A stretch of DNA of 64,000 bases from contig OX597820.1 in assembly GCA_951406725.2 (NCBI GenBank), positions 91,822,001 through 91,886,000 of the forward strand, given 5' to 3'. Source of the DNA: Octopus vulgaris (lineage: Eukaryota). Below are positions 14,059 to 43,124 of the stretch, piece after piece; the stretch's first letter is position 1; the number at the start of each line of letters is the position of its first letter. The notes under the pieces are model-generated. The model saw nothing but the letters and a program-made list of their open reading frames with translations, made no database searches and was not told where the DNA came from. The position numbers were made by a program, and so were the translations under genes.

Positions 14059-14716
14059 TTACTCGAAGGAAATTTTGCGAAATGCTATATTACTCTTGAA
14101 TACTATCCTGATGTCATATGGGCCGCATATCCTTTGTATTTTTTTGGAGAGGCCTCTCACATAGGGTAGACAGATTGTGGACAGTTTATTGGCCTCATCC
14201 TCTCTCTTCTTCAAAATTGCAGTGGATAGTATACTTTTGAGGTAGTTGTTGCTTAACAGATCATTATTTAGCTTGATCATTTCTTCATGGTGTGTATCAC
14301 GATCACTACTTATATTCTTTGCACGGTGTTTTAGGCACTGAACAATACCTCTCTTTACACTGTATGGATGGTGGGAATTGAAGTTGAGGTATCTCCCAGT
14401 AAATGTCGGCTTGCGGTATACGGATATTCTGAATCCATACATGGTGCGTGTTATTAATACGTCCAGGAATGCCAGCTGATTGTCTTTTTCCTTTCCTATT
14501 GTAGACTGTATGGATGGCTTTGTTGAGTTCACGTGATCTAACAACACTAGGACATCTTCCTGGTGGGGCCAGAGTATAAAGGTGTCATCAATATATCGAA
14601 GCCATAGTGTTGGTTTTAGTGATTTTGATCCTAAAGCCAAATACTTAAAGTATTCCATGTCGGCTATTACCGGTGATAATGGCGAACCCATATCTAAACT
14701 CTCCTCTTGTCGATAT
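14059..14716 (-). pseudogene. PLE reverse transcriptase, C-terminal half
   Basis: YRQEESLDMGSPLSPVIA, LWLRYIDDTFILW, LAFLDVLI, VYRKPTFTGRYLNFNSHHP and LPYVRGLS are PLE RT motifs. Confidence 0.9.
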
Positions 14717-16115
14717 ATATCCGTCGAATGTAAAAAAATATCCGTCAAATATAAATAATGTACATCATTCATCATCTCTTAGATATAGATTTGACTATAT
14801 TTGTTTTAAATTTATAATCTGAACTCGTCTTCATATTACATCACGCTTTTGTACTGCATCTTCGTTTATATATAGAGAGATATCGTTGCTTCTATGTTAC
14901 CTTTCAGTGTTGCGATAGGAATTGGATTGTAAATTTTTTCCCACTCTATAATGTCGCTGTATGTAAGTAACATTCGTATAATTTAAATAGAAATATAGTT
15001 TTCTTACCATAGTTACACTAATTATATTGCATATTATCGTTTTTGTATCGACTCCCTTTTACTGAACAGTAAATATTTGGTTAGGTTTTAGAACGTATCT
15101 CTTAAATATAAATGCTATTAACATACAAAATCTAGGAGAAACTGAAGCCTTGTTTTATTTATTCAATTTTTTTTCTACTTTTGCATGTGTTAGTACATTA
15201 CGTTTCAAATACATAATTTAAAAGGATTACTGCCTATATGTATAAAACACAATAGCATGAAGGTATTCATTGATAAATATCATATTATATTGCATTAAAC
15301 ACCCTGGGAAAGCAGCACAGCTGACATACGTTCACTGAACCGTCCCCTTCAATTATTAATTCTTCGAAATTCTACAAAATTAAACAGTAGTATTCAATCT
15401 ATGCTGCTCAAAAGTGAGCAAAAATAATACTGCTCAAAAATGTTATTTAGAATGAAATATATAAAAAAAAATTTTTGTATTTTCAGAAAAAAAATCATCT
15501 TCAGGAACACGGAAATTGTGCAAATTAATGACGTTTACGAATCACTTTCTATTATATTTGTAATTACGTAAATTGATTGAGTAACGGAACTTCTGGCATG
15601 TCAAAACAAGCACATAATTTATTGGCATGAAGTCAGTTGCTAGCACATCTAGCCTGAGTCCAATTGACATGATACTTTGCAATGCTTTTTGTTCCTACAT
15701 AGCTACTATCGTTACCGCATGTTCCCAGCGTTGTCTAAACTGTCAGATTCAAACAAATTATCTAGATCATCTTTATCCTCGCCCCCATATTTTTTCCAAC
15801 GCTGCCACTCTACTAGCAACTTTATCCGGCTTTGCCCTGCAGAAAGTCAGCATACTAATTCTATTTGTGCCCGTGTGTTTTACTTGCATTCCGTAAACGT
15901 ACGCTTATTCGTGTATTGCATTGCTTTCAAGTGATACTTACTATGTTACAGTAATATTACATGTCAAATTAAATAAAATAGAAGCAGAGACTCCCTTTCT
16001 TTTGCGCCATATAAACATATCCTTATCCATATGTAGCTTCGCCTGTTGACTTTACGTGGAATATTAGATGTTGATCCCGGGTACAATCTATGTACTTACG
16101 TACAAAAGAGGACTT

Positions 16116-36606: not shown

Positions 36607-38529
36607 AATGCAGAAGACATCACCTCATGCTTTATATACTTACATAATAAAATGTGATGTAAAATATTATTGTAATTACTTTGCTGGTTCCCATTCAATA
36701 GTCATTATTTTCACGAAAACATGACGACTTGTTTAAGAAAAGCTATATATGACATAGTGCAATACATTACACAAACTGCCGATGCAACCTGCCATTTTCA
36801 CACAAACAGGAAAACAATTAGCATTTCTACTGCTTTGCAGTCAGCTTATATTCGTTGGGAAATGGCCATTTCACAAACCCCTCTTTATACCCAAATAGTT
36901 TCAAACTTAACACCTTAAGTTCAAATGCCCCGTAGCTCTTTTGTATAGTTCAATACTGAATCAAAATAGAATATCATTCACTTCAGTAATAACTGTGTGG
37001 TTTTCTCTGGTGGAAATAAATAACAAATAAACGAAAATGGAAGTAAATTATTGTTTTGCTTCACCTTGCACGACTTAAACACTTCGTATTCGTTTGTTGT
37101 TTGTCGTGATAACTATTGGCACGACTTTAAAAATATTCAATCACTACCAATTTGCTTTACTTCCTGCTATCGTGCATTCTGCGGAATATTTTTGGTTACA
37201 TTATATACTTAAGAAAGAACGGTTCTGAAATAGTGCAAATATTTACTCTATAACTATTTAAATTTTGTTGCTTTCAAAAATTCAGGTAACTAGGAAATCT
37301 TAACAACTGTGTTCACGCCAACCTGTACACATATGTAAATACTTAACTACTTATACAATTGCATCCACAGCACAACACCTACACACACATACCTTTGCTT
37401 GTTTTCAATAGCGAGGAATTAAAAGTTACGCTTAAATTTCTTTTGCTTTTTTTGTCACAAGTATTGTTTAACCGACTGTGCTTAACACTAACAGCAGACA
37501 CATTTAAACAGCTAGCGACAATCATCTATAACCTGTGCAGTTATATAGACTTTATGATACATCAAGAATCTCGAAATTTGTCATTCTCAGATTTCTACAG
37601 GTGTCAACCACAAAATTTTAAGAGATGAAACCAAATAGTGCTGTCATGTTCTGTAGCAGATAGGATTTATTCCATCGAAGATTTTCTTTATAATAATATT
37701 GCCTTACCAGGCGATATAGAGTATCTTCCATGGGCGCACTTGATGGTTTGTCCCTGATTATTTTGTTATGACTTCTATTTCCCTGCCAGGCATAATTACT
37801 GGTAGGGCAACTTCATTATACTGCCAGATTTTAATTTCAGTACATACGCTTGCTGTTGTCAGGATTTGGCTCATAAATTGAGATAAGGCCTCTACCTTGT
37901 GAGTTCAAATGTTTAAGTCACTACTGATTGTACTACTCAGTAAAAGAAACTATCAACATCTACCACAATTTACTGTCTTATAAAAATAGGAGATTGCGTT
38001 GTGGCAATTCTATATAATTAATATTGCTCACGTACCCCCAAACTACATTCCAGAATCCTTGTTAAATGTCCTTATTCTTTAATTCATAGGATCCAAAACT
38101 GTATAACATGAACTCATCGATATATAATAGATGGTATATATATATTCCCTCCATACATTCAAGGCGCATAAGCGGGTCTAGACTTTTCAGTATGCTGCTC
38201 GAGGCTTACTAGATGTAGTTGTTTTGGTTGTTGTTGTTGTTTTTATTATCATTACTATTTATATTATCTTTAATAATTTAAAAGGATTGACGTAACTCTT
38301 CACAAAGATAAATAGACAATAGAAAGAGAGCTGCCTCTATCGAGTTCAAAACGAAAAGCGATAAGAATTCAAAATTATACAAAAATATGAACGAGAACAA
38401 CCAGCGTCCAGACGTTGATGGAATGACATCATCAGTCTTCAAAGCTGAATTTTACAACTGGCAAAGAGAAAAAGAAAGAAAAAAAGTAAAAATAAAAAAG
38501 CAAAGAAAAGGAAAGGAAGGAAAATTTAA

Positions 38530-39240
38530 TCAAACAGTTTATGTCAATTAGATGAAATTCTCCTGTCTTTTTATTCATTTCTCCAGGGCGTGACGTTAAT
38601 AACCCGCAAATGTATTTCTCCTCAAACATTTTGGGTACTACAAGTGTACCAGATTCAGAATATTTTCTGAGAATATACACTTTCGAGTCTTTTTCCAAAT
38701 TGAAGCCGTTTGATTCAAAATCTTCGGCAAGTTTTGTCGACGTACTGTTATTATGCCTGACGTCATATCTGTGCCCATTGAATTTTTTGTTTAATTGTTC
38801 TGTTGTACAACCAACATAAATCAAGTTGTGTTTCGTGCATTCTGCTGCGTACACCAAATGGGAATTTCTACATGCCCCAGCTTCTGTATAAATTATAGCA
38901 CTTCTGTAATGATTCCTGATGGAATTCACTTGACACGTATTATTGCAAAATGAACGGGGCTTACCTCTCTTGCGGCTGGGTTTTTTTTTACATGGTACAG
39001 CGTGCAGATACTCTAATACTAGTTTTCTTGGAGTCAGAAGTAGAGATTAATAGCTCTCATATTTTTTCTGTTTAAAGGCTACAATAGGCGGCTGAGGAAA
39101 TATTTCTTTGAAATGAGGATATTTTCCTGCATTATACTGGTAACTTTCATGCAACACTTTTGAAATGCCAGCGAAATTTTGATGCCAGTTAGTCACTAAA
39201 TAAATTCTGACACATATTGTACTGTTTCCTAAAATTATGC
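38530..39240 (-). pseudogene. PLE linker and GIY-YIG endonuclease
   Basis: LVTNWHQNFAGISKVLHE...FKEIFPQPPIVAFKQ (Neptune-type linker), PCKK..R...FCNNTC, CRNSHLVYAAECTKHNLIYVGCTTEQLNKKFNGHRYD, and FEEKYICGLLTSRPGEMN. Confidence 0.85.
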
Positions 39241-39599
39241 GTGAAAGTTGCTATTTCCTTTAATTGTGATCACTGTAACTGCAATTGGCATAATGGAGTA
39301 CAAAAGCATTTACATGTCACCCATAATCCCCTATATCAGTAGAAATCCGTTCCGTTTTATCCTCAAGAATCGGGATTTCGGATTTGACAAAATTATAGGG
39401 TTGTATGATCAAAGCGGAGGTGGAGGTAAATGTGGGGTCAGGGGAGCTTGCGAAATAACTCTGTCACTATTCTTCCTCTGGAAAACTTAACATTTGTGTA
39501 AGAAAATTCAATGCTAGATTTTGAAAAACTTGACGTAAATTATATGTTAGACTTAAAGCCATAGATTTTAGCGCAACAGCCACAGAAATACAAGAAGTA

Positions 39600-40143
39600 A
39601 ATTGAACAATATTGTAATTCTTCCTAAACAAAAAAAATCATCACGGAATCGTAACCAGAGTATTGGTTCATGACCATGTAGTGATTATATTTTATTAAGT
39701 AACTGTGTCTCTAATTTCGTCATGAAGACATTAACGAAATTGACTACCATGGGGATACACATGGCACAACCCCTCATCTGATGGTAACATTTTTGTCCAA
39801 ACTTCATTGTGTTACTTCGTACCACAAGCCTCAATAACCTACTGAGAAAATTTGGTAGCATACTTTGTTTGACCGTTTTCCGAAGGCATTCATGCATATT
39901 TCTACCCTTTCATCGTGATCCTTATTAGGTTATAAGGAAGAAACAGGCATGGTTACCAAAAATAGTTTCCGACATGGCTTCGGTACTTAAAAAAGTTGTT
40001 GATTTTAGACACAAAATCAAAGGTATCTCAGGAAGTAGAAAGACATGCAGCCACTCCTAAATTTTGGTTGTACAACATTCATATCCACTGCATTGGAGGA
40101 AATCGTTAGACCCTTTGGCGTATTTTGGGAGAGACCATAAAAT
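39600..40143 (-). pseudogene. PLE reverse transcriptase (decayed)
   Basis: FYGL/PKIRQ..RFPP, MPVSSL*PNKDHDEKG, CYHQMRGCAMCIPMVVNFVNVFMTKLE, and WLRFRDDFF (catalytic DD). Confidence 0.85.
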
Positions 40144-40149
40144 ACAGAG

Positions 40150-40660
40150 ACAGGAACAAACTTATTGTTTTCGAGACAAAATCATAAATGTGCTTGCATT
40201 TTTCCCTGATCAAATAAAAGCTTCTCTGGAGCGTTTCCAGTGACTAGTTCAAATGCGTACGCCAGGTCAAAAAGACCACAATCATGTGCGCCAACTTGGG
40301 ATTACTAATATGAACTTGTTGAATTGTGAGAATTATGTTTATGGTGGCTACAGCATTGTTATTTGTGCTATTAGTTCTTGTGGTACTGGTAAGTTCAAAC
40401 TGTCATAAATATAAACATCTCCGAAAAAATAGGTCGACAAAAGAAAATTACTGTACTTGGTATGATGAATGAACAGTATGCGATGTGGACAGTATGTTAG
40501 AAATACAGTGCGAGAAAAAAATCGTTGGTTGTAATGGAATTTCAGGAAAAATTTCCGCTAACATTTTAAACTCAGTATCAATAGGTTTGTTGCATAACAT
40601 TTGTCCCGAAAGTAAAAACGATTACGCCTCATATTTCAGAGCAAATGTGCTCAACCAAAA
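40150..40660 (-). pseudogene. Ulp1/SENP (peptidase C48)-like cysteine protease domain inside the PLE ORF (decayed)
   Basis: Manual translation across frameshifts: FWLSTFALKYEA*SFLLSGQMLCNKPIDTEFKMLAEIFPEIPLQPT / ILFIHHTKYSNFLLSTYFFGDVYIYDSL..QELIAQI / QVGAHDCGLFDLAYAFELVTGNAPEKLLFDQGKMQAHL*FCLENNKFVP. Catalytic Asp (YDS) at 40402-40404, Gln at 40296-40298, Cys at 40278-40280. Confidence 0.75.
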
Positions 40661-40705
40661 TACTCCCTTTCCCACTGGCTCTGAATAAATAGGAAATCAG
40701 CTTTT

Positions 40706-41132
40706 TCATCTTCTTTTCCTTTTTTGCCTCCAGGGCCGAAATTTCCTTTTTTTTAATTTCATCAAACAATTACACAAATAGTTTAAACTATTTTTAGAAG
40801 AAAATACCTGTTGAAGGACACTCATAATATCTTTAATGTCTGCACCAAGCCATACTAATTTTGAAAGATAGTATTCAATAATAACTTCCATTATGTAAAA
40901 TGAATTGCTCTCACCAATCAGTTTAAACATTTGAAGCAATGAATCGTCAGGCTGTGATGCACACATTGGTATATTTGATATAAGACCGTCCGGTATAACC
41001 TTTTCTAGTTTGCACGTTTCCAGAAATGATAAATGGCTTTTGATATTAGCATGAAAACGATTCATCTTTTTTAAGTGATAGAAATATCGATTTCTCATTT
41101 TCTGATTCGTATTTGAATGGTACAAAATCCAT
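40706..41132 (-). pseudogene. PLE N-terminal domain
   Basis: LKKMNRFHANIKSHLSFLETCKLEKVIPDGL fits the PLE HxxFLxxCxxxxxIPxGL motif. The probable true start is the ATG at 41132 (MDFVPFKYE...), joined by a frameshift in an A-run. Confidence 0.75.
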
Positions 41133-41542
41133 TGTCCCAGGATTTAGCTCAACACGTGGTCTAGCGAAAGTAACAGGGCTGACAAGCCAACTGTAAGTAG
41201 AAATAAAACGCAAAAGCTCTAATTCACATTACGATTTTCCTTAGAAACCCGACTGTTTTCGTAACTTCCAGAATTTCTAAATTTTCCAATTATTATTCTG
41301 GGTAACATAACATTAGTCATCTCAGTCTTCTTGATTTTGATATTTTAAAAGGATTGACATAACTTTTCGCAAAGGTAGATAGAGAATATGAAGAATGCGA
41401 TGCGATTGCAACACATATTTGATTGGCTGAACGATATTTCAACAGAAAGCCTGTCTTTATCAAAATATCGTTCAACCAATAAAATATCTATTGCAATCAC
41501 ACCGCGCTTTTCATATTGTCTATTGTTTTTATTATTATTATT

Positions 41543-41940
41543 AAGAGGGCAGAATAGTTACCGTGCCAGGCACAATGCTTGGCATCATTTCGTCCTTCTC
41601 TGCGTTCTGAGTTCAAATTACACCCAGGTCGACTTTGCCTTTCATCCTTTTCGAGGTCGATAAAATAAGTACCAGTTGAGCAATGCAGTTGATGTAATTG
41701 TCTTAGCACCTTCCCCTGAAATTGTTGGACTTGATCGAAAAATTTGTAACCATTATTATTATTATTATTATTAAGGTGGAGAGCTAGCAGAATGTCTTGC
41801 AGCATTTCGTCCATTTTTAAGTTATGGTTTCAAATTACTCCGAAGTTGACTTTTGAAGTCAATAAAAAAATTACTAACTGTGCACTGTGCTCTTATAACT
41901 CAACAATTAACCTATTCCCAAATTTCGAGCCTTGCTCCCC
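41543..41940 (+). mobile_element. Two degenerate family-A SINEs separated by (ATT)n
   Basis: gttctgagttcaaattacacccaggtcgactttgcctttcatcc...(att)n, then aaggtggagagctagcagaa... Confidence 0.75.
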
Positions 41941-42319
41941 TTGTTCGAAGGATAATCCTCGACATTGTCGTCGTTGTCGTCATCATTATCCTTATCATCA
42001 GCATGTAGGTGACCAATCAAGTACTATGCTTATATAGGTGGATCATGACGACAATTTAATCACGCGTAATATGTTACGTATTGTACATAAAAGCGCCAGA
42101 AATCACTTCACCATAACCAATCAGTGAAATGCAATTATCTTATGAGTAAATGAATTCTAGAACTATTATGAAATATGCATAATCGAATACGTATAAGCAA
42201 AGTATTGCTATAATCGACCTCTAAAGATATTATGTTTGATCATCTGCAAGTGTTGAAACAATTGTAAACCATGAAATAAACGTAATATCACAAAATTCAT
42301 TATGCAGTTATTAAATATG

Positions 42320-42326
42320 TATGTAT

Positions 42327-42384
<58 letters not shown>

Positions 42385-42629
42385 GTGTGTATATATATAT
42401 ATATTTAGGTATATATATATGTATATATATACACACGCACACATATTTATATGTATATATATGGATATATATATACATATATATGCATATGCACGTACAT
42501 ATATTTGTGTATATATATATGCATATACATATGCATATATATGTATATATGTATATGTGTATACATGTATATATATATATGTGCGTATATATACATACAT
42601 ATATGTGTACACAAACACACACACACACA

Positions 42630-42685
<56 letters not shown>
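42320..42685. repeat. Long degenerate (TA)/(TG)/(CA) microsatellite
   Basis: Seen directly; it is the source of several spurious ORFs. Confidence 0.95.
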
Positions 42686-42687
<2 letters not shown>

Positions 42688-43124
42688 AGCTGTGTGTATT
42701 TGTGTATGTGATTATATACGAATTTGTTAAACAAAATCTACTACTACTACAAGAGATCAGCATGTGAATATAAAAGTTACATTGACTGCATTTTAATCTA
42801 AATAGCAATTTCTTCCGTTATTGTGTACTCATTACAAGGCTTATAACAAATATACGTATGTGTATGTATCTGTCGGATAATTTCGTGTAATCGGATATAT
42901 TTTATAATAATATTTATTTTGCTTTCTCTTATTTCAGCCTACAGGCTGTAATAATAAGCCATTTAATTTTCCTTTAGTTTAAGGAATGTTTAGACTTTGC
43001 ATCCTTCTACATGAGACTGAATATGTGATATTCATCATAACATATACATACGTATATTTATGATTTATATACAGCATTTATGATATATCTGTAAAATAAT
43101 TAAATGCATAAATCTCTCTCTCAC

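Follow-up and report, generated by a model that had tools for sequence, protein, structure and literature searches.

A Ulp1/SENP-fold protease domain and a 2A-like leader in a clade of Penelope-like elements, with a decayed copy in Octopus vulgaris

Ulp1-like domains in mobile elements and the closest described systems

Ulp1 domains are carried by Zisupton DNA transposons. The papers cited here place such domains also in NeSL and Utopia (PMC4640811) and in Ginger1 and Mutator (PMC2836005), in agreement with what an earlier note on the present DNA had stated for NeSL LINEs, Mutator and Ginger; in these papers the role of these recurrent transposon-borne domains (NeSL, Utopia, Ginger, Mutator) is only a proposed one. 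NeSL and Utopia-1_TSP belong to the R2 group and possess a restriction-like endonuclease (PMC4640811), whereas the clade described below consists of Penelope-like elements (PLEs) with a GIY-YIG endonuclease (EN), and adds these telomerase-related elements to the Ulp1-bearing transposons. The Ulp1(+PHD) module of Ginger1 and Mutator is of the same protease family, PHD- and SWIM-linked homologues being the nearest outside PLEs, but it lies C-terminal to the transposase and is often followed by a PHD finger (PMC2836005), whereas the PLE protease is internal, has no PHD finger and precedes the reverse transcriptase (RT).

Neptune and Nematis, PLEs with a C-terminal EN, have in common with the clade a single ORF in which RT is followed by GIY-YIG, the DKG motif, a CxxC linker motif before EN (in the octopus family and subclade A), terminal direct repeats, an inverted 5' fragment and microsatellite-rich flanks (PMC8557442, in part); the clade differs in its additional peptidase C48 domain and 2A-like leader. 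The RT-EN linker finger CX2-5CxxC, a feature of both Neptune and Nematis, has its canonical form in protease-less relatives and subclade A; the octopus branch has the longer C-x11-C-x2-C, and many members of subclade B have no such finger. A 'Neptune-type' label is plausible on the C-terminal EN, DKG and linker CxxC, as a label set by features and not by named Neptune or Nematis references; Neptune is described as paraphyletic (PMC8557442), and the RT profile matched only I-TevI GIY-YIG domains and no named PLE structure in PDB. The earlier note's description of canonical PLEs as RT plus GIY-YIG stands except for the word 'only', as Chlamys PLEs also carry PHD, SAP and a Josephin-like motif (PMC8557442). 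Chlamys-1_cBra is likewise a PLE with a ubiquitin-system-like cysteine protease motif, but one of the Josephin family, with weak homology, located C-terminally in a member of the N-terminal-EN clade from a green alga (PMC8557442).

No C48 or Ulp1 domain in a PLE was found in the full texts searched (Repbase Reports, subscription journals and bioRxiv supplements were outside the scope). The available portion of PMC8557442 contains neither 'Ulp' nor 'SUMO', and its supplement, in those parts open to a text search (alignments given as pictures are not), contains none of five clade motifs and no term Ulp, protease or C48; the available portions of PMC12338488, PMC12846837, PMC4209133, PMC6431247 and 10.64898/2026.07.22.740005 do not mention a PLE protease. 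The protease-bearing clade is apparently undescribed, and was likely overlooked so far because its domain falls mostly under the Pfam threshold.

The decayed copy and its siblings in the octopus genome

The window (64,000 nucleotides of O. vulgaris, contig OX597820.1, positions 91,822,001 to 91,886,000) contains a PLE copy that is dead and internally deleted (Table 1). Its motifs, including the N-terminal motif HLSFLETCKLEKVIPDGL at 41035-40982, are all on the minus strand, and no relevant reading frame was found on the plus strand at 38800-43000. The limits of the copy were set by blastn collinearity with siblings L062, L063, L065, L066, L069, L070, L072 and L073 and by tblastn of an intact protein, P0006, residues 986-1258 of which align to the thumb/linker-EN part. 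The copy is bounded by a 59-nt direct repeat (38269-38327 repeats 41336-41394, 83%), and sibling 3' ends lead into (AAT)n/(ATT)n-type repeats. The terminal direct repeat and inverted 5' fragment of the window copy, with the head-to-tail 3'-5' joins seen in siblings, make up a pseudo-LTR or partial tandem structure; an inverted truncated fragment is typical of PLE insertions (PMC8557442, in part). The RT was identified by a Pfam RVT_1 match on sibling L008, and RVT_1 is above the Pfam cut-off in several intact relatives, as is GIY-YIG, C-terminal to RT, in P0006, P0229 and others. The PLE-type RT marks (NLS..GLSF.P, DKG, FYGLPK and the catalytic DD) are present in siblings and intact ORFs, NLS and DKG being deleted from the window copy. 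A second, more distant PLE-type RT fragment lies at 14059-14778 (minus strand; ORF, tblastn E=1e-6), and a short interspersed repeat unrelated to the PLE, found near many of the loci examined, occupies 41548-41700 and 41787-41853.

Table 1. Parts of the PLE copy, in positions of the window
Feature	Positions	Strand	Remarks
Whole decayed PLE copy	38269..41463	(-)	~3.2 kb; undeleted siblings ~4.0-4.1 kb
Inverted 61-nt duplicate of PLE 5' end (41379-41439)	41463..41523	(+)	inverted repeat, 84% complementary
Candidate hammerhead-like core, terminal repeat	41437..41463	(-)	pattern TTGA.AA - short stem - GAAA
Leader	41133..41320	(-)	ATG 41320, R-I-G-F-type start, hydrophobic segment, 2A-like D..VELNPG(T); frameshifted
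PLE N-terminal all-helical domain	40709..41132	(-)	H..FL..C....PDGL motif at 41035-40982
CE-clan / peptidase C48 (Ulp1/SENP-fold) cysteine protease domain	40149..40660	(-)	three frameshifted blocks with stops
Catalytic His site	40447..40449	(-)	AAT = Asn in window copy
Catalytic Asp	40402..40404	(-)	GAC
Oxyanion-hole Gln	40296..40298	(-)	CAA
Catalytic Cys, in DCGLF	40278..40280	(-)	TGT
Deletion junction	40147..40149	(-)	~0.8-0.9 kb lost: linker, NLS..GLSFCP, DKG
Reverse transcriptase, FYGL-PKI to thumb	39350..40147	(-)	DD at 39642-39637; frameshifted
Thumb/linker + C-terminal GIY-YIG endonuclease	38530..39349	(-)	Pfam match ~38860-38660, E=0.00058
3' UTR + terminal repeat	38269..38529	(-)	then ATT/AAT-rich microsatellite

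The three C48-type motif blocks that the earlier note had described on one strand were all recovered, from 40660 to 40149 of the minus strand. Block 1 (W at 40657 ... LLSGQML ... LQPT) contains a stop codon at 40624, block 2 (IHH....N-FLLST....VYIYDSL) contains the His site and the Asp, and block 3 contains the Gln and the Cys. The Asp, oxyanion Gln and catalytic Cys are intact, as had been claimed, and the Asn at the His site is a lesion of this copy, the codon being CAT in 29 of 38 genomic copies. Block 3 is indeed in frame with VFYGL of the RT, but a TGA lies at 40184, and the join is not a genuine fusion but a deletion junction, on short CCT(G)T-like microhomology, because 12 of the 16 siblings with RT/EN downstream on the same strand keep 798-915 more bases between protease and RT. 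These bases encode the linker, the NLS..GLSFCP motif and DKG, which bears out the suspicion that the window copy had lost its DKG region by internal deletion.

When the genome was searched at the DNA level with 40150-40700, 40 of 98 candidates were scored as matches, at 76-100% identity (76-84% for those other than the window itself). Because of these matches, and of 913 proteins found at E<=0.001 in a representative protein library with the protease, the C48-like motif set of the window is evidently not a product of chance. Among the 40 scored matches, the best 29 copies besides the window all have further PLE parts within 1.5 kb; the 5' PLE region is present in the same orientation in 22, and RT/EN lies downstream on the same strand in 16. 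The catalytic residues are retained by most of 38 copies (30 from this search, window included, and eight others): His in 29, Asp in 32, Gln in 31 and Cys in 32. Rare variants are spread evenly over codon positions 1, 2 and 3 (232/243/248) and variants common to at least six copies prefer the third (12/8/24, p=0.009, CpG effects not removed), a pattern consistent with selection on source elements and neutral decay of the copies they give rise to; no intact copy of the family was seen among the octopus genome copies examined.

Copies chosen by RT are uninformative as to the presence of the protease because all 20 are 5'-truncated and end before it. Among 29 copies chosen by the N-terminus, which overlap partly with the protease-chosen loci, the protease is at least 80% covered in 15, partial in five and absent from nine. 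In none of these nine is the NLS motif joined to KKEKKL, where the N-terminal domain ends, and their breakpoints also cut PLE motifs, as expected of truncations or deletions. In L203, L206 and several shorter matches, the leader and the start of the N-terminal domain are joined directly to the terminal repeat; L203 and L206 share an identical breakpoint and represent a short non-autonomous PLE derivative.

The hammerhead-like core pattern occurs in sibling terminal repeats also (at both ends in L063 and L069) and resembles the U3-A8 hammerhead variant (PMC4209133, in part); no Rfam hammerhead match was obtained in the window or in 12 loci. One relative has a canonical-looking minimal hammerhead core just after its in-clade EN (L132:1820-1860), which is not among the Rfam matches. 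An Rfam MIR774 match in the window was discarded as a 61-nt hairpin of the inverted 5' duplicate.

Architecture, fold and phylogeny of the protease-bearing clade

Twenty complete ORFs with N-terminal domain, C48, RT and GIY-YIG, such as the earlier note had proposed to seek in other genomes, were found; they are 1223-1520 aa long and are organized as leader, helical domain, protease, linker, NLS, DKG, RT and GIY-YIG. The long in-clade ORFs, from RT and protease searches of ENA, Logan, JGI and NCBI assemblies (partly marine), are 1223-1553 aa in length versus approximately 850-1000 aa for most protease-less relatives, which share the N-terminal helical domain. A structural model of this domain from relative P0181 is all-helical and has no Foldseek match. 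The linker after the protease is 80-387 residues long and of low complexity, apart from conserved KW..P(K/R) and N(R/K)F..L motifs just after the protease. Catalytic residues are practically invariant in 42 RT-linked ORFs (His 32/32 and Asp 32/32 where covered, Cys 42/42, Gln 41/42), and the mean pairwise identity of the protease (0.48) equals that of EN (0.48), versus 0.54 for RT and 0.26 for the N-terminal domain, in profiles built from 13 of the 20 intact ORFs. The C48-like protease is almost certainly an integral, selected domain of this PLE clade.

Distribution in less complete sequences is similar. In all six clusters with a truncated representative, longer members bear the protease. Eight of 80 metagenome loci are in-clade, four with the protease and the other four without their 5' part; the protease occurs in none of the other 72, of which 23 have a recognisable N-terminal domain and three are probably in-clade pieces cut short. 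Relative L077 is found in 19 seawater metatranscriptome runs, probably from one campaign, and one of its contigs runs from leader through EN with the protease not skipped, although this may be the source sample itself, and DNA can be present in RNA libraries. A 4491-nt L077 contig spans the element and, 805 letters further on, reaches the start of it again, as would a tandem, terminal-repeat or circular form. The clusters P0248, P0216 and P0254 include many in-clade copies on megabase ENA contigs, among them a 1152-aa ORF (P0306), and therefore represent recently expanded families in other hosts. The protease-bearing family is widespread, and the phenomenon is broader than first noted: a group of C-terminal-EN PLEs is marked by a CE-clan protease, captured long ago, together with a leader of 2A-like type.

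The domain of the window belongs to the CE clan, beside SENP/Ulp1, as verified through siblings and intact relatives. The C48 check proposed in the earlier note failed on the octopus sequences themselves, since Pfam detected nothing at E<=5 in the three window blocks and no C48 in seven protease-containing sibling stretches, and succeeded through profile, language-model and structure searches on siblings and relatives. Direct phmmer searches of L008 and full-length P0006 against PDB gave no match. PF02902-bearing clusters account for 28 of 30 ESM Atlas matches (score 0.96), and 17-39% of members of the top three clusters have PF02902. A profile of 81 sequences, including non-PLE homologues, matches the structures of Ulp1-like 6DG4 (E=1.4e-5), SENP1 (2.8e-5) and SENP8 (2.3e-4) as well as SENP2 and SENP5, and 42 of the 81 match C48 at E<=0.05; a PLE-only profile matches SENPs weakly (E 0.007-0.09). 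A Pfam C48 match of any strength was obtained for one of 15 RT-bearing ORFs in one set and one of nine in another, and P0229 exceeds the Pfam cut-offs for C48 (22.5 vs 20.7 bits), RVT_1 and GIY-YIG within one ORF. A UniRef Octopus fragment of the window PLE family (74% identical) is named 'Ubiquitin-like protease family profile domain-containing protein'.

The AlphaFold model of the L008 protease (pLDDT 90.9) has SENP5/Ulp1 as its first Foldseek match (E 7e-6, TM 0.62), the top seven rows being SENP5, Ulp1 and SENP1. In VIA-align, SENP3 (Z 16.4, rmsd 5.7, 181 aligned), SENP8, the NEDD8 protease (15.9, 3.4, 168), SENP1 (15.6, 3.1, 164), SENP5 (15.4, 2.9, 153) and Ulp1 (15.1, 3.6, 166) tie within about one Z unit, with ubiquitin-cleaving CE proteases within 2 Z units of the top; bacterial and viral CE enzymes come after SENP/Ulp1, and a gap separates Z 8.1 from 4.9. 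All 29 chains at Z>=8 are, judging by their titles, CE-type proteases or effectors. The PLE protease has in common with SENP1/3/5, SENP8 (NEDP1) and yeast Ulp1 the CE fold, the His-Asp-Gln-Cys order and an aromatic residue after His (56 of 56 covered rows: Phe 35, Trp 18, Tyr 3), but differs from them in its identity of only 11-19% and in the start-of-fold Trp, mostly replaced (Trp 6, Tyr 3, Phe 1 and Met 1 of 50 covered). The Ubl-binding site thus differs from that of SENPs, and the replacement lowers the case that the domain is a SENP, not the case that it may work like a Ubl protease.

In keeping with the earlier proposal of a capture by a PLE lineage, the protease-bearing PLEs form one branch in the RT phylogeny and one in the protease phylogeny. 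An RT tree of 87 rows, made without 10 near-duplicate or odd rows and without short fragments from inside the clade, unites 41 of 41 protease rows in a branch (SH-aLRT 100) that includes 22 truncated rows and none of eight protease-less rows; a careful 49-row tree separates the 41 protease-bearing from the eight protease-less rows with support 100/100, the searches behind this eight-row outgroup having started from the protease clade. A protease tree of 70 rows places all PLE-linked domains on a single branch (96/91), embedded within C48 domains that include PHD-linked ones. Two subclades and a four-member group with the octopus family recur in both trees, and protease and RT distances are correlated (Mantel rho 0.60, and 0.31 inside the larger subclade; 0/2000 permutations). 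Because the protease tree follows the RT tree and protease rows are separate from protease-less relatives, the protease evidently had a single origin, in one ancient capture, and has been co-inherited with RT. Outside PLEs, the nearest homologues are C48 proteins linked to SWIM, YqaJ or PHD, and we infer that the domain came from the Ulp1(+PHD) pool carried by DNA transposons.

In-clade ORFs start with an M.D...YR.RIG.F motif, followed by a hydrophobic helix and a 2A-like ending. An (I/V)Ex(N/H)PGP-type ending, mostly with S or G instead of D, is present in 31 of 37 in-clade leaders and in none of eight protease-less proteins; because six leaders are without it, the NPGP ending is not essential to the clade. 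The leader DPSVEPNPGP of octopus siblings retains E in 15, N in 16, P in 15, G in 15 and the last P in 10 of 18. The leader resembles the 2A-like sequences of APE-type LINEs (PMC3708506), where the motif alone is not sufficient, and class B 2A (PMC12338488) in having (I/V)Ex(N/H)PGP close to the N-terminal end in a retroelement with one ORF; it differs in being mostly DP(S/G)(I/V)ExNPGP after a hydrophobic stretch, versus GD(V/I)ExNPGP in APE-LINEs and W...EEGIE in class B. The available main text of neither paper mentions Penelope, and 2A-like sequences may reduce protein abundance rather than cause skipping (10.64898/2026.06.17.732966, in part).

Possible roles of the protease and its onward movement

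The invariant catalytic residues suggest an active enzyme, which is probably a ubiquitin/Ubl isopeptidase. Eukaryotic CE proteases are SUMO/NEDD8 hydrolases, and the CE fold includes deubiquitinase, mixed Ub/Ubl and acetyltransferase activities, with ready switching among SUMO, NEDD8 and ubiquitin (PMC4961225, in part). A role as a tethered Ub/Ubl isopeptidase of the PLE clade, attached to the element's own RT-EN particle, is favoured as rather likely because the aromatic residue after His is Ubl-protease-like, yet the Trp is replaced and CE folds switch substrates; that SUMO is the main substrate may well be so but falls short of probable. According to this proposal, the 2A-like leader would likely be removed, or would lower expression, during translation, and the protease would stay joined to RT because no conserved Gly-Gly flanks it. 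Tethered to the RT-EN particle as an isopeptidase for a ubiquitin-like tag, of which SUMO seems the most likely, the protease would then, at target-primed integration, take SUMO, NEDD8 or ubiquitin off the element's protein or off factors of chromatin, silencing or repair where the element inserts, which would help the element to avoid repression or degradation.

SUMO is needed for piRNA-guided transposon silencing in Drosophila (10.1101/533091, in part). SUMO-dependent silencing is, in this analysis, a motive and not evidence for the proposed role, and a link to piRNA-type silencing in the hosts of intact members is assumed. If it is true that SUMO is taken off silencing or repair factors, the protease would be a direct retroelement counter-defence enzyme. 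In a more elaborate and rather doubtful scenario, a widespread marine PLE clade acquired a deSUMOylase together with a leader that causes ribosome skipping, both in a single ancient event, countered SUMO-dependent piRNA/SetDB1-type silencing at the integration site, and later passed the protease to an APE-type LINE. The domain is compact (approximately 170 residues) and well predicted, and material for testing includes many intact divergent ORFs, at least one of them in RNA libraries, and a protease-less sister group as a natural control.

A NEDD8 or ubiquitin protease that protects the element's protein from turnover, or tunes repair after the GIY-YIG nick, instead of counteracting silencing, overlaps with the tethered isopeptidase and differs in substrate and purpose. 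SENP8/NEDP1 is in the structural tie for first place, with ubiquitin-cleaving CE enzymes within 2 Z units; a repair role was proposed for Ginger1 transposases, which bear OTU or Ulp1 (PMC2836005, in part), and for Josephin-like domains, which occur in Dualen and in one Chlamys PLE, a link to the blocking of degradation has been made (PMC8557442, in part). SUMO proteases nevertheless come first in sequence profiles and fill the top seven Foldseek rows (SENP5, Ulp1 and SENP1), and a purpose of this kind appears unlikely.

Somewhat less likely still is a maturation protease that cuts the element's polyprotein and releases RT-EN from the helical domain at the N-terminus. Polyprotein cleavage is known from viral CE proteases, in one group of which the site is Ala-Gly-X (PMC4961225, in part), and the PLE domain would be suitably placed between the N-terminal domain and the low-complexity linker (80-387 residues), with the conserved KW..P and N(R/K)F..L motifs after it and the start-of-fold Trp of SENPs mostly lost. 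Gly-Gly, however, is found at the protease boundaries in none of the 20 intact ORFs, which leaves the polyprotein-processing module suggested in the earlier note without support; it is absent from the N-terminal domain/protease boundary and from the linker in 20 of 20, and the GG of DKGG is missing from several. Protease-less relatives hold the same N-terminal domain joined to RT, and viral proteases score lower (Z 11-12) than the nearest SENP/Ulp1 structures (Z 15-16).

A non-proteolytic CE enzyme, such as a YopJ-like acetyltransferase, or a catalytically idle binding module is highly improbable: of the 81 homologues, eight give weak matches to YopJ in Pfam but 42 match C48, YopJ-type structures come last among CE matches (Z 8-10), and the domain retains Gln, Cys-Gly and the aromatic residue after His, the position of a conserved Trp in CE proteases that YopJ acetyltransferases lack (PMC4961225, in part). 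A piece of a separate DNA transposon, inserted in the window copy or only in the octopus family, as the SWIM-, YqaJ- or PHD-linked homologues and the nine of 29 N-terminus-chosen copies without protease might suggest, is refuted by the twenty intact fused ORFs of other assemblies and has practically no probability, since those nine are truncations or deletions that remove PLE motifs too, all 29 protease-chosen sister copies have other PLE parts, and the RT and protease trees agree.

Besides its inheritance with RT, the protease domain has likely been passed onward from the PLE clade to a LINE. The proteases of P0109, P0105 and P0069 are nested inside the PLE protease clade (100/97), and P0109 continues into the start of an APE-type endonuclease (Exo_endo_phos set in 15 of 30 ESM Atlas matches). 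P0135, P0163 and P0168, which we take to be polycystin-like, are long membrane proteins with the same C48 domain at their end, and P0135 and P0168 also have a PHD-like finger; a domestication or a gene-model fusion is possible.
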